DNA of 64,000 nt from Holosporales bacterium (GTDB lineage Bacteria; Pseudomonadota; Alphaproteobacteria; RUG11792). The notes under the pieces are model-generated. The model worked only from the letters and a program-made list of their open reading frames with translations. It did not search any database and was not told the DNA's origin. Positions 24,153 to 28,259 of the stretch are shown one piece after another (the stretch's first letter is position 1; each line of letters starts with the position of its first letter). The stretch covers positions 5,288 to 69,287 of the forward strand of contig JAIRWL010000010.1 in NCBI GenBank assembly GCA_031268935.1. The letters run 5' to 3'. A program made the position numbers and the translations under genes.

Positions 24153-27100
24153 TTACCCTTCCTTCAGTCTATCCAACGCTTCGAACAACTTCCCCATTTC
24201 CCTCAACTGCCTGACTGATTGGTTCAAAGTACCGATATCAGTATCCGCAGGACCTGTGGCTTCCGGAATTGTGCCTGCAGGAGCGGGTGGCGCTTCTGTC
24301 GGGCCTGGAGCTGGACTTTCACCCCCTTGAACTGCCCCTGCTTCGGCTGCACTCGACGGTGGCTCTGCTACCACTGGCACCGAAGCTACTGGAGCGGATG
24401 GCTCCGCTGTAGTTCCTGGAGCTGGACTTTCACCCCCTTGGGCTGTCCCTGCTGCGGCTGCACTCACCGGTGACTCGACTTCCGGTACTGCTTCTACGGG
24501 GGCCGCTGGAGAGACCCCCGCATCCGTACCAGAGGGCGCCGCCGACGTGGAAGAGGCCCCCCGCCACCCTCTTGACTGTTTTGCTCCCTGTTCCGGCTGG
24601 GCTGCTGGGGAAACGGAGACCTCCTGCCCTGCTGCAGGGACTCCCTCCATGACCGGACCCGACGTGTCCAAATCCGGATCAGGGGCCGGGATCTGAGGGG
24701 ATGCCGCGAGCTGTTGTTGAAGCGAGCTACCGGCCGGGGAGGCGATGTCTTCCCCCTGTAGAGGGACGGGCTCCGAATCTCCAGATGAGGCCTCGGCTAC
24801 CGCAGCCCCGAGGGGTGTCCCCGTCTCTTCTGCTATGTCATCCAGTTTTTCTTCCATGCCCCCGATTTTCTCACCAAGTCTTCTGACCTCTGCCACCAGG
24901 CTGCCCAGTGCATCCTCGTGTAGATAATCCGCCCTTCCTATAGCTGATTCCGCCGGCCGCCCCTCTGACGTACCCTCCTCTACTCCTTCTCGCCCGGGGA
25001 TTTGATACTCTGAATCGGTGTGTACCGCTCCTGGATCCCTGGGCGATAGATCGAAGTCAGGGAAATCTGCCTCAACTGTTGCCGAATGGGATTCCTGGAT
25101 CTCCTCCGTCTGGCCATCCAGTTTTCCTGTCCCTGGGGTATACTGATTATCTGAATCCCTCAGAGTTGCCATAGCTGCGTCCTCCGGTCGCTCTACCCAC
25201 GGTCCATCCGGTCGGCCTACCCCCGGAGAGGCCTGATACTCTGAATCTCTCCTGAGCTCTCCTACAGGCCCGAGTGGAAGATCCAGGTCATTGTAATCAC
25301 CCGAATCTACCGCCGGAGGGGATGCATGCAGCGCCGCAGACGAGCCAGCCGGAACTCCTGCCCCCTGGGGGATCGAGGATGCTGGATCGCTCTCGGCTTC
25401 TACTGGATCTCTGGGTGGAAGATCGAGGGAGTGAGGAGGCTCTCCCTGGACATCTTCGTAGAACGGCCCGCCGTTTGGACCAATTCCAGCTGCGTGACCA
25501 CCTACCTCCCGGATTGGTTCAGACTGATTCGGGCTTCCCGGGTGCTCATTACCCTGTTCCCACATTTCCTGGGAGATCTTCCCGGACTCGGCGCCCGGAT
25601 CGTTTTCATTCTCTTCCCACTCCGGATAATCGTCTAACCAACGTGCACTACCCCCCTCGTTGTCTGTCCACCAGTTCTGATCGGGTTCGTCTATGTCCTG
25701 CAAGGATCTGCCGGAAAGCCAAGATTCTGGGCGCCAATCCTCTCCGTCCTGATCGACCTCGGGCCCCCACTGGTATGTGTAGTCCGACTGCTCGGGGACG
25801 CTCTCCCCGCCGTCTCTCCCGTAGATCTCTTGGGAGGGAACAATTCTGCCTGCGGACTCTAGATCTAGCACTTGATCCCCATCTCTACTGAAGCCTCCTG
25901 TCTCCCTCACCTCTGCTCTAGGATCTGTCCCTTTGGAGGGGACAATGCTTCCTGCGGACTCTAGATCTAGCACTTGAGCCCCCTCTCCACTGAATCCTCC
26001 TGCCTCGCTCTCCTCTGCCCTAGGAGTTTGCCATGCTGCTAATCCAGCATCTCGCGGCTCGAGGGGATCGCTGTCCTGAGTTGCTCTGGTCTCCGGGCCC
26101 CGCGTCTCTGTCTCTTCTTGATGGACCGCCCCTTTTGATTGAGCTATGATGATGTCCTTCAGTTCGGCTACTTGTTCTGTCAGTTGTTCTATACGATCTC
26201 CTTCCTCTGTTTCGGGGGACTGTGCCTCCACTTGAGAGGATTGGACTGAGCCACCCTCAGGGCTTGAGCCTGCTAACGGGAGATCCGCTGGAGGAATAGC
26301 GTCCTCTCCCTGTGCGGCTTCGGCGATACCTCTCCCGACCTCAGCCGGAGAATCTCCATCTAAGCCTATGCTGACCGGGATGGCACCCCCATCTCCCGGG
26401 AGAGCCGTTGCTGAGGCTTGAAAGTACCCTCCTCCCCATTGTGCTTCTCCGACCTGTGCATTAAATACCTGTGCTGCTGCCTGTAGGGGTTGATTCTCAG
26501 GGCTTTCCTGGTTTGCTAGCGGAGTAGGAGCCGCAGCGGTGGCTCCAGCGATTTCCGGCCACTGCCCGGCCAATGCTGGGTAGCCAGATTGTCCGAATGC
26601 ATCTGCTTGTACGAACGGATCTCCGAAATATGGCGCCGGCCCCGCCTGGCCTCCTCCGGCCTGCCCCCCCTCCGCTTGCTGTAAGGGCCCGGCGTACTGC
26701 TGAGCCCCGGGTGCTTCAGAAAGGACCGCCTGAGGGATCTGAGTCGGGGCAGGTACTGTAGCCCCTTGAGACGCGAAGCCCCCAGACTGCCCGTCGGGAA
26801 AGGCCGCTTGTGGATAAGTCACCCCTGGAGGTTGAGTTGGGCCAAAGGATGCTGTATCTCCAGGGGAGGCAGGTAGCTCGCTTGCTGGGTATTGGGGCGC
26901 CTCAAATGATAAAGCTGCCGGCGGAGACGGGTTGTTTTGGAAGGCCTGCCCCACCTCTGCTCCTGTCGGAACCTGCCCAGAATATTGAGAAGATTGTTGA
27001 CCACTTAAATCGCCCTGCTGGTAGCCAGGATCTACGACCGTCTGCCCATCTAGTAGGGGCTGCCCTGGTGCCAATGGTGCTCCCCCTTGGCCAGGTGCGG

Positions 27101-28259
27101 GCACCGGATAGAATGGCATCGATTCTGAAGCTGGATCAGGTTGAGGGGATTGAACAACGTACTGTGCACCTGGAACTTCACCTTGTGGGTAGGGCCCCTC
27201 AGGCCCAGGCTGCCCAGGAAATGTTTGATCCCCAGGTTGCTCGGGTGCTCCGGCTGCATTTATCTGCCCCCCAGCGGCTTGGAGAACGACTTGAGCTCCG
27301 GAAGGATCCTGCTGTCCAGCGGGAGGGACGCCCGGCTGCCCGCCAGCCTGAGACTGAGCTGGTGGCAATGGTGCTCCCCCTTGGCCAGGTGCGGGCACCG
27401 GATAGAATGGCATCGATTCTGAGGCTGGATCAGGTTGAGGGGATTGAACCACTGACTGTGCGCCTGGAACTTCACCTTGTGGGTAGGCCCCCTCAGGCGC
27501 AGGCTGACCAGGAAATGATTGATCCCCAGGTTGCTCGGGTGCTCCGGCTGCATTTATCTGCCCCCCATCGGATTGGGGAACGACTTGAGCGCCAGAATTA
27601 TCCTGCGGAACAGCGGGAGCGACGCCCATCTGCCCGCCAGCCTGAGACTGAGCTGGTGCCAATGGTGCGCCTTCTTGGCCAGCTGCGGTCTCTGGGTAGA
27701 ATTGCACCGAGGCTGAGGCTGGATCAGGTTGAGGGGATTGAACACCGGGCTGGGAGCCTGGAACTTGACCTTGTGGGTATGTCCCCTCAGACCCAGGCTG
27801 ACCAGAAAATGATTGATCCCCAGGTTGCTCGGGGGCTCCGGCTGCATTTATCTGCTCCCCATCGGCTTGGGGAACGACTTGAGCGCCAGAATTATCCTGC
27901 GGAACAGCGGGGTCACCGCCTTCTGATGCAACTGCCTCATTAGGCTGCCCTTGCCCTATAAATGGTTGGGCCGTCGGGGGACCACTTCCATTTTGCGCCT
28001 CCTCGCCAGATGCCGCCGAAGCCGCAATAGCTCCATCCCCTGCTCCTGTCGGATCTAGCTCCTGACCGGGCCCCCCCTCGGGAGTACCAGCAACGGGAGG
28101 ACCATCCGGGGGATTAGATGAAGGAGCTTCTGCCGGGCTTTGTTCTGAGGCTTCGAAAGATTGGGTATCAACTGTATTTGCTGCTGATTGAACTGTCGGG
28201 CATATGGTCATTGGAGCAAGACATATCAATAGCAATTTCTTATTTATCATGTAACTCAC
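24153..28259 (-). CDS. Giant secreted Pro/Gly/Gln/Ala-rich repeat protein (1368 aa)
   Basis: N-terminus M(SYM)INKKLLLICLAPMTICPTVQSAAN (signal peptide), three 98-aa tandem repeats, further short repeats, low-complexity acidic segments, and a short helical C-terminus (LNQSVRQLREMGKLFEALDRLKEG). Confidence 0.75.
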   Translation of the reverse strand: MSYMINKKLLLICLAPMTICPTVQSAANTVDTQSFEASEQSPAEAPSSNPPDGPPVAGTPEGGPGQELDPTGAGDGAIAASAASGEEAQNGSGPPTAQPFIGQGQPNEAVASEGGDPAVPQDNSGAQVVPQADGEQINAAGAPEQPGDQSFSGQPGSEGTYPQGQVPGSQPGVQSPQPDPASASVQFYPETAAGQEGAPLAPAQSQAGGQMGVAPAVPQDNSGAQVVPQSDGGQINAAGAPEQPGDQSFPGQPAPEGAYPQGEVPGAQSVVQSPQPDPASESMPFYPVPAPGQGGAPLPPAQSQAGGQPGVPPAGQQDPSGAQVVLQAAGGQINAAGAPEQPGDQTFPGQPGPEGPYPQGEVPGAQYVVQSPQPDPASESMPFYPVPAPGQGGAPLAPGQPLLDGQTVVDPGYQQGDLSGQQSSQYSGQVPTGAEVGQAFQNNPSPPAALSFEAPQYPASELPASPGDTASFGPTQPPGVTYPQAAFPDGQSGGFASQGATVPAPTQIPQAVLSEAPGAQQYAGPLQQAEGGQAGGGQAGPAPYFGDPFVQADAFGQSGYPALAGQWPEIAGATAAAPTPLANQESPENQPLQAAAQVFNAQVGEAQWGGGYFQASATALPGDGGAIPVSIGLDGDSPAEVGRGIAEAAQGEDAIPPADLPLAGSSPEGGSVQSSQVEAQSPETEEGDRIEQLTEQVAELKDIIIAQSKGAVHQEETETRGPETRATQDSDPLEPRDAGLAAWQTPRAEESEAGGFSGEGAQVLDLESAGSIVPSKGTDPRAEVRETGGFSRDGDQVLDLESAGRIVPSQEIYGRDGGESVPEQSDYTYQWGPEVDQDGEDWRPESWLSGRSLQDIDEPDQNWWTDNEGGSARWLDDYPEWEENENDPGAESGKISQEMWEQGNEHPGSPNQSEPIREVGGHAAGIGPNGGPFYEDVQGEPPHSLDLPPRDPVEAESDPASSIPQGAGVPAGSSAALHASPPAVDSGDYNDLDLPLGPVGELRRDSEYQASPGVGRPDGPWVERPEDAAMATLRDSDNQYTPGTGKLDGQTEEIQESHSATVEADFPDFDLSPRDPGAVHTDSEYQIPGREGVEEGTSEGRPAESAIGRADYLHEDALGSLVAEVRRLGEKIGGMEEKLDDIAEETGTPLGAAVAEASSGDSEPVPLQGEDIASPAGSSLQQQLAASPQIPAPDPDLDTSGPVMEGVPAAGQEVSVSPAAQPEQGAKQSRGWRGASSTSAAPSGTDAGVSPAAPVEAVPEVESPVSAAAAGTAQGGESPAPGTTAEPSAPVASVPVVAEPPSSAAEAGAVQGGESPAPGPTEAPPAPAGTIPEATGPADTDIGTLNQSVRQLREMGKLFEALDRLKEG
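27036..27917 (-). repeat. 3 x 294-bp in-frame tandem repeat inside the giant gene
   Basis: Protein units VPQDNSGAQVVPQxDGxQINAAGAPEQPGDQSFxGQP...QSPQPDPASxS..FYP...GAPL.P.Q repeated three times. Antisense shadow ORFs recur with an exact 294-nt period (27050, 27260-27553, 27554-27847). Confidence 0.85.

Follow-up and report, generated by a model that had tools for sequence, protein, structure and literature searches.

We analysed a 64,000-nucleotide stretch of DNA from a Holosporales bacterium (GenBank assembly GCA_031268935.1, contig JAIRWL010000010.1, positions 5,288 to 69,287; hereafter the window), in which a gene for a long, acidic, repeat-built protein is located on the minus strand, directly 3' of ftsA and an MFS transporter gene. 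In the original prediction this gene was an open reading frame (ORF) of 1368 amino acids (aa), placed at 24153-28259 and starting with GTG. The gene is real: its sense frame contains no stop in 1365 codons, compared with 22-61 stops in the other five frames and about 47 expected from base composition. The proposed start did not hold, since GTG 28259 falls within the ribosome-binding site (ttGAGGTGAgttacATG), and for this reason ATG 28250 is most likely the true start, which yields a protein of 1365 aa, i.e. the form found in the NCBI nr record. The JGI/IMG annotation calls a C-terminal piece of 692 aa alone, from an internal GTG (24153-26231), and it is this piece that serves as cluster representative, so that the full protein is missed by length-filtered homology search. 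An antisense ORF of 377 aa that spans the repeats is the usual by-product of a stop-poor repeat.

The window is part of a 98.8-kb contig in a genome of 0.95 Mb (43.5% G+C, 32 contigs). The nearest public relatives, as judged by FtsA, are metagenome-assembled genomes (MAGs) labelled Holosporales from termite-gut and rumen metagenomes. The organism is of the obligate-endosymbiont type and belongs to an uncultured, gut- or protist-associated Holosporales-type order with genomes of about 1 Mb. Such gut-derived clades have been described as uncharacterised, with conservation of the type VI secretion system among their group (PMC11909080); sheath proteins of this system are encoded within the window.

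Protein-level comparisons identified no relatives of the focal gene product. The whole protein gave no match to Pfam, NCBIfam or PDB sequences, and a word-index homology search with the whole protein and with residues 100-660 gave none among 5.8 billion clusters. An exhaustive phmmer search with residues 660-1368 against 1.84 billion representatives returned the protein itself and a ciliate leucine-rich repeat (LRR) kinase, which was rejected as a spurious low-complexity similarity. No relatives were detected in a scan of metagenome contigs, neither the whole protein nor a profile of its 98-aa repeat unit matched anything in 40 related genomes, and tblastn and blastn searches of the genome itself revealed neither paralogues nor a shared leader.

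The family was found by a DNA search of related genomes with the 192 nt around the start. The 5' DNA displayed 73% identity to G005:C14, the corresponding region in a genome of the same genus, over the leader and 13 codons (E 1e-9), and the first 13 codons also matched in five further genomes. Each of these matches marks the beginning of an ORF that is long, acidic and repeat-bearing and is preceded by the same GAGGTG ribosome-binding site. When the 41 genomes in the GTDB order were searched with a profile of the conserved head (consensus MINKKLLxVCLAPF), 13 of them, from 11 of 23 genera, each yielded a single long acidic ORF, with E-values of 1e-13 to 1e-16 in 12 genomes and 2e-5 in the thirteenth. 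In the focal genome the profile recognised the focal gene alone, though well over 150 signal-peptide-like ORFs are present there. The order ftsA-MFS-gene was observed in eight genomes of seven genera (the focal genome, G018, G014, G015, G047, G020, G006 and G050), and this position downstream of ftsA and the MFS gene appears to be ancestral; in G005, G017, G010 and G022 the gene is located elsewhere.

Beyond the head, the orthologues resemble one another in layout. The G018 orthologue shares the head, the leader and the ftsA-MFS position with the focal gene, and its body and repeats differ; in pairwise BLAST comparisons of the focal protein with its orthologues the head alone aligns. A central coiled-coil module can be aligned among six orthologues, and the match of the focal helix H2 (Table 1) to this module is weak (E about 4) and not significant. 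Judged by eye, every complete orthologue has a C-terminus that could form an amphipathic helix (the focal protein being the only one modelled), and a leave-one-out profile of the orthologue C-termini gave no significant match to the focal C-terminus. Nearly every orthologue carries an in-frame tandem array of its own, mostly in the N-terminal third, with periods that include 117, 99, 168, 243, 282, 261 and 285 nt. Homology across the family is therefore established for the head, the leader and the synteny, and the rest shares architecture only. This architecture, as far as the sequences suggest, comprises a signal peptide, an acidic disordered region with lineage-specific repeats, a coiled-coil or helical module, a further disordered region and a C-terminal amphipathic helix. 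The gene occurs in a single copy, and its head, promoter and position have apparently been inherited vertically, while the body is hypervariable and repeat-driven; it diverges by substitution and repeat turnover and does so too fast for protein searches even within a genus. The family is previously undescribed and is so far known only from this uncultured Holosporales-type order.

Two of the orthologues are incomplete or aberrant. The G005 orthologue (L029, G005:C14:15882-16736) runs off the contig end within 117-nt tandem repeats, and it follows a ctpA-like peptidase gene instead of the ftsA-MFS pair. A core PEQP..DQ(S)F is common to its repeat and the 98-aa unit of the focal protein; the PEQP motif was rejected as a family feature, since the focal protein has it in common only with G005 and with G047/G020. 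The G020 orthologue (L031, G020:C1, start 46601, minus strand) is 529 aa long and has an aberrant hydrophobic and basic tail, while that of the congener G047 reaches 947 aa; the gene is rich in repeats, and either a frameshift or misassembly probably accounts for the difference.

The repeats of the focal protein were assessed by Tandem Repeats Finder (TRF), a repeat search and a BLOSUM self-dot-plot compared with locally shuffled sequence, and all three classes exceeded the null of shuffles that preserve local composition. The largest array was called by TRF as 294 bp x 2.9 (27065-27911), and a profile of its 98-aa unit revealed exactly three full copies without degenerate extras. This array had been described as three near-identical units, and it was indeed found, but its units, clearly related as they are, are not near-identical: they display pairwise identities of 80-92% in DNA and 68-86% in protein, with no indels. 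Synonymous divergence (dS) between them is 0.13-0.37, and the ratio of nonsynonymous to synonymous divergence (dN/dS), 0.54-0.61, lies weakly below 1 (Fisher p 0.05-0.24). The duplicated GGFS..QVLDLESAG.IVPS unit was also recovered, with a period of 34 aa (102 nt) rather than the proposed 32 or so, and the Ala/Pro/Ser duplication near the C-terminus was borne out.

All repeat periods are multiples of three, and the protein has probably grown by in-frame tandem duplication. The proposed recent expansion is not supported, since DNA divergence of 8-20% and the above dS values indicate that the duplications are not very recent. In contrast, the suggested repeat turnover is real on the evolutionary scale, as nearly all orthologues of other genera carry arrays of other periods. 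Identical runs of 27-57 nt remain between the units, and recA is present in the genome, so copy-number variation by recombination at the repeats would be possible.

The protein is composed mainly of Ala, Gly, Pro and Gln (13.5, 13.4, 13.2 and 9.3%, respectively), and the mature form has a mass of about 135 kDa. It is strongly acidic, a property that had not been mentioned in the original prediction: D+E amount to 14.6% and K+R to 3.2%, with a net charge of -155. The N-terminus has, by inspection, the features of a Sec signal peptide of the signal peptidase I (SPase I) type, as previously proposed, with an n-region MINKK, a hydrophobic core LLLICLAPMTICPTV and a cleavage site Q-S-A-A/N; the orthologues carry AxA/E-type sites. 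No lipobox was present in the first 40 residues.

AlphaFold2, run on the single sequence in two halves, gave a mean predicted local distance difference test score (pLDDT) of 39 and 44 and modelled just three helices with confidence (Table 1), so the protein is predicted to be disordered nearly throughout apart from these short amphipathic helices. H1 and H2 had gone unnoticed in the original prediction, and the last helix, H3, corresponds to the amphipathic helix with which the protein had been said to end; its pLDDT of 69-86 and hydrophobic moment of 0.61 agree with that claim. H2 resembles H3 (p about 0.006 against shuffles), and a helix like H3 was not seen as a common C-terminal feature of the other GC-rich exported ORFs of the genome. 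The general picture of an exported, repeat-built, Pro/Gly/Gln-rich (and Ala-rich) protein with no folded domain is therefore upheld by the Sec-type signal, the lack of a Pfam match and the predicted disorder.

The likeness to mucins, extensins or extended fibrils could not be maintained: S+T make up 12.3% (at most 21 per 100 residues), and neither SPPP nor PPP occurs. A collagen-like structure can likewise be dismissed, because the longest GXY run is 3; there is also no anchor or beta-barrel. The protein contains no GGxGxD motif of the RTX type. As regards autotransporter or type V features, no Pfam domain for a beta-barrel translocator was found, and the C-terminus is a predicted helix. Nine of the 13 Trp residues lie between aa 831 and 900, in a strongly acidic segment of some 80 residues that reads ..EDWRPESW..NWWTDNE..RWLDDYPEWEENEND..EMWEQ. 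Several eukaryotic trafficking proteins bind W-acidic motifs, and the resemblance of aa 827-900 to these motifs is no more than anecdotal. Readings of short motifs in terms of WH2/actin, kinesin W-acidic or clathrin/AP2 binding were dropped, as single motifs of this kind are indistinguishable from chance.

The leaders of 12 orthologues were aligned, and the few invariant columns were found to be concentrated in four blocks. Both TTAA half-sites of a TTAA-N7-TTAA box are invariant in all 12 leaders, 66-75 nt before the ATG, and the window contains just two sites of this form, that of the focal gene included. CtrA, which regulates the cell cycle in alphaproteobacteria, has TTAA-N7-TTAAC as its consensus site (PMC9791040). 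A -10-like hexamer follows (Table 1). A consensus promoter scan called no full sigma-70 promoter at 28308-28313, which would be expected if activation depends on CtrA. The TATAAT at 28283-28288 was rejected as a -10 element, being situated in a hairpin loop and not conserved. When leaders were folded individually, a small hairpin appeared at the same place in most of the 12, with stems that differ in sequence, and in four of the 12 it was better than at least 98.5% of shuffles; RNAalifold detected no consensus structure on the MAFFT alignment, so covariation is not formally supported. The GAGG of the Shine-Dalgarno sequence is invariant in 12 of 12 orthologues.

The genome encodes a candidate CtrA (C27:34282-34950) that scores 323.7 bits to NF045991, the next response regulator reaching 115 bits. 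A response regulator within the window (39735-40424) was rejected as CtrA, being of the generic OmpR/PhoB type. Genome-wide, TTAA-N7-TTAAY occurs at 75 sites, compared with 50 +/- 9 expected. Among ORFs with a box 10-160 nt upstream, 14 of 25 begin with a signal-peptide-like sequence according to a crude heuristic of our own, compared with 164 of 786 ORFs without a box (p 1.7e-4). These observations hint at a CtrA-linked regulon of exported proteins in this genome, and we infer that transcription of the focal gene is controlled by CtrA. Boxes placed 30-110 nt upstream of signal-peptide-like genes are found, for example, at C2:12810, C5:89062, C10:9091, C10:16073, C11:21821, C23:37163, C27:47915 and C27:24225, and the boxed genes include other GC-rich "island" ORFs.

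Table 1. Features of the focal gene, its leader and its product (window coordinates)
Feature	Position	Strand	Remarks
Coding sequence (CDS)	24153..28250	-	1365 aa + stop, from ATG 28250
CtrA-type box TTAACAAATCATTAAT (TTAA-N7-TTAA)	28324..28339	-	73 nt upstream of ATG
-10-like hexamer CATAAT	28308..28313	-	conserved columns A49, A51, A52, T53 of leader alignment
Small leader hairpin (GAUGA...UCAUC)	28274..28297	-	preceded by conserved AAGAAG (28297-28302)
Shine-Dalgarno GAGGTGA	28256..28262	-	5 nt before ATG
Signal peptide MINKKLLLICLAPMTICPTVQSAA/N, Sec/SPase I type	28179..28250	-	by inspection
Three tandem 98-aa (294-nt) units	27063..27944	-	aa 106-399, GTG numbering; unit profile
Helix H1	26115..26213	-	aa 683-715; AlphaFold2 pLDDT 61-80
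Two 34-aa units (GGFS..QVLDLESAG.IVPS)	25827..26006	-	TRF and dot plot; 102-nt period, span about 25829-26025
Trp-rich acidic segment	25560..25781	-	aa 827-900
Helix H2	24822..24947	-	aa 1105-1146, contains RLGEKIGGMEEKLDDI; AlphaFold2 pLDDT 57-79
Two 37-aa Ala/Pro/Ser units	24279..24464	-	111-nt period, span about 24275-24483
C-terminal amphipathic helix H3	24159..24236	-	aa 1342-1367; AlphaFold2
Intrinsic-terminator-like hairpin and T run	23978..24006	-	about 150 nt past stop

The CDS differs in base composition from its surroundings (G+C of 0.60, compared with 0.34-0.40 in the flanks). G+C at the three codon positions is 0.74, 0.56 and 0.48, and at four-fold sites it amounts to 0.47, close to the 0.44 of backbone genes; the 60% G+C therefore stems from amino-acid composition, i.e. 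from Gly, Ala, Pro, Gln and Glu codons, and not from a foreign origin. The gene is one of about 100 ORFs (at least 100 aa) of this genome with a G+C of at least 0.52, which together account for 12% of ORF residues. At least 39% of the ORFs in this class have signal-peptide-like starts, and the class holds most of the in-frame tandem repeats. Its four-fold-site G+C, 0.52, exceeds that of the backbone, and in this respect the focal gene differs. Of 27 tandem arrays contained in ORFs of the genome, 20 fall within those ORFs whose G+C is 50% or higher, and these account for only 18% of ORF residues.

The 3' untranslated region (23951-24152) also has a high G+C (58%), although no frame in it is coding, and it may once have been part of a coding sequence; the flank beyond it falls to 37%. 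Its predicted fold was no better than those of shuffles, and an Rfam scan of 22.5-29 kb gave no match. Directly downstream of the focal gene (22080-23785) lie a hexapeptide acetyltransferase gene of low G+C (0.34) and a Phd/YoeB toxin-antitoxin pair. These genes are missing from the corresponding position in the relatives, and the downstream side is therefore a variable region.

Elsewhere in the genome, an MshL/GspD-type secretin lipoprotein gene adjoins that of a GspF/PilC-like platform protein (G000 C15:6717-9515), and TolC-like proteins are encoded as well; both are possible candidate routes across the outer membrane. The secretin/GspF-like pair is adjacent to two GC-rich exported orphan genes (C15:10958-14126). 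A separate set of paralogous exported proteins, one of them encoded in the window (37828-38793, minus strand) and the others at G000 C23:40238-41446, C27:1283-2467, C9:35426-36577, C13:433-1521 and C27:11249-12142, ends in a conserved C-terminal transmembrane-like segment (..GLVVGSVATLGLGI.GG..LW....K..) and may represent a tail-anchored surface or inner-membrane family.

Taken together, we consider it probable (roughly 0.6) that the focal gene is under the control of CtrA and encodes a disordered, polyanionic protein that is exported by Sec and belongs to the envelope or the host interface, and that the gene is the local orthologue of a single-copy, ftsA-linked family. According to this interpretation, CtrA would switch on transcription via the TTAA-N7-TTAA box, the product would be exported by Sec and its signal peptide cleaved, and the mature protein would act outside the cytoplasm, in the periplasm or on the outer surface of the envelope, where symbiont and host meet. 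It would then be an extended, charge-dominated envelope component that oligomerises through its helices. A folded enzyme or toxin is unlikely, and the protein may have a role in host interaction.

Several observations weigh against this interpretation. Neither the body nor the C-terminal helix resembles its counterparts in the orthologues to a statistically significant degree, and homology therefore rests on about 25 residues, a leader of about 110 nt and synteny. The gene was seen in just 13 of the 41 genomes; that the others lack it may be due to gaps in the MAGs at repeats, to heads that have diverged further or to genuine loss. The cleavage of the signal peptide was assessed by eye alone, the protein has neither an anchor nor a barrel nor a lipid attachment that could be recognised and would place it, and single-sequence AlphaFold2 has limited power for fold detection. 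As regards regulation, the focal box ends in TTAAT and not TTAAC, the CtrA candidate scores below the curated cut-off of 350 bits, and the excess of TTAA-N7-TTAAY sites is modest in an AT-rich genome.

It is also conceivable, though we consider it unlikely, that the protein is a translocated effector, which would be exported by Sec, would cross the outer membrane by a secretin machine, vesicles or another route, and would act in the host cell. Short linear motifs in the disordered repeat body would then do the work, as in the tandem repeat proteins (TRPs) of Ehrlichia or the Sec-delivered effectors of Liberibacter, and the divergence of the body would be the product of an arms race. Such a function would suit an obligate-endosymbiont-type organism with a 0.95-Mb genome, the acidic, disordered, tandem-repeat architecture and the extremely fast evolution of the body, and the secretin and GspF-like genes are present. 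The body also carries the Trp-rich acidic segment and a single DPF motif, which may be no more than chance occurrences. Holospora periplasmic proteins, which are also without homologues, are released to the host during infection (PMC11909080). On the other hand, the LDAVTSIF share of the last 50 residues (0.48) is in line with that of the protein as a whole (0.46), and the dN/dS of the repeat units is not above 1. We prefer an envelope component because the dN/dS is below 1, because a single copy, synteny with division genes and a cell-cycle-type promoter conserved across 11 genera fit a housekeeping component of the envelope better, and because the comparable RARP-1 of Rickettsia, formerly regarded as an effector, turned out to be located in the periplasm (bioRxiv 10.1101/2022.02.23.481736).

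Two further explanations would deprive the gene of a conserved role. The contrast in G+C with the flanks, the failure of whole-protein searches to find a homologue and the mobile appearance of the downstream genes (the Phd/YoeB pair and the low-GC acetyltransferase) could be read as marks of a one-genome orphan on a horizontally acquired GC-rich island, i.e. an accessory surface antigen peculiar to one strain or a gene acquired from the host. This is hardly tenable: orthologues keep the leader, the signal peptide and the position in seven genera, which refutes it, the four-fold-site G+C is near that of the backbone, the high G+C comes from Gly/Ala/Pro codons, and the sole distant match, the ciliate kinase, is spurious. 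It is also very improbable that the locus is non-functional, whether as a decaying or spurious long ORF or as an assembly artefact of collapsed or expanded repeats. The truncated JGI/IMG call, the antisense ORF across the repeats, the weakness of the dN/dS signal, and the frameshifted appearance of the G020 orthologue and truncation of the G005 orthologue at a contig end would all be compatible with it. However, the chance of 1368 stop-free codons at the composition of the ORF is about 3e-21, the start context and promoter are conserved across 11 genera, the repeat periods are multiples of three and the units free of indels, and units that differ at 8-20% of bases can be placed by short reads; the antisense ORF has the trivial origin given above.

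A broader and more speculative picture, in which we have little confidence, is that CtrA controls an entire programme of fast-evolving disordered proteins exported by Sec, with this gene as its conserved flagship, and that the family is the main structural component of a polyanionic envelope coat or periplasmic matrix that CtrA switches on at one cell-cycle or developmental stage. If true, parallels would exist in the periplasm of Holospora infectious forms, which is filled with protein, and in the dense-cored cells of Ehrlichia, which are driven by CtrA.

Holosporales-type endosymbionts are uncultured, and their host-interface proteins are nearly unexplored. From the methodological point of view, a protein that is an orphan by every sequence search could be tied to its orthologues via promoter, signal peptide and gene order. 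For this lineage the analysis provides a concrete candidate link between CtrA and an exported disordered protein, with boxes that appear enriched upstream of signal-peptide genes. Moreover, a single-copy gene with conserved ends and a hypervariable repeat middle is a natural locus for strain typing, and its product may be a surface antigen. For the time being the practical impact is modest, because the function has been deduced from sequence.

As a kind, acidic and disordered tandem-repeat proteins that intracellular alphaproteobacteria export or secrete are already known; what is new is this family, its conserved CtrA-type promoter and its linkage to ftsA. Within the order, the stage-specific periplasmic proteins of Holospora obtusa (89, 63 and 5.4 kDa) belong to a bacterium of another taxonomic family and gave no match in our searches, the sequences not having been compared directly. 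The Sec-delivered effectors of "Candidatus Liberibacter" also carry a Sec signal peptide, belong to a reduced intracellular alphaproteobacterium and are proposed to act at or in the host. They differ from the focal protein in being small (mostly <250 aa) and are not polyacidic repeat proteins, and we know of no link between them and CtrA.

The TRPs of Ehrlichia and Anaplasma (TRP32, TRP47, TRP75, TRP120; MSP1a-type repeats) are likewise acidic and largely disordered proteins of obligate intracellular alphaproteobacteria, with lineage-specific tandem repeats that differ between species. A classical signal peptide is absent from them, and they are secreted by a type 1 system via a C-terminal signal (PMC3417381), whereas the focal protein has a Sec signal peptide, and neither the LDAVTSIF share of its C-terminus nor the lack of a GGxGxD motif fits a type 1 substrate. 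In addition, the TRPs are rich in Ser and Glu, in contrast to the Pro/Gly/Ala/Gln-rich focal protein, and no sequence similarity was observed in any search. In the Rickettsia protein RARP-1, which is conserved in an intracellular alphaproteobacterial lineage, a Sec signal peptide precedes a long, repeat-containing disordered region. RARP-1 differs in its C-terminal ankyrin repeats, the focal protein matching no Pfam family, and no sequence similarity between the two was found; RARP-1 was shown to be periplasmic and not secreted (bioRxiv 10.1101/2022.02.23.481736), and by analogy it offers a precedent for placing the focal protein in the envelope.

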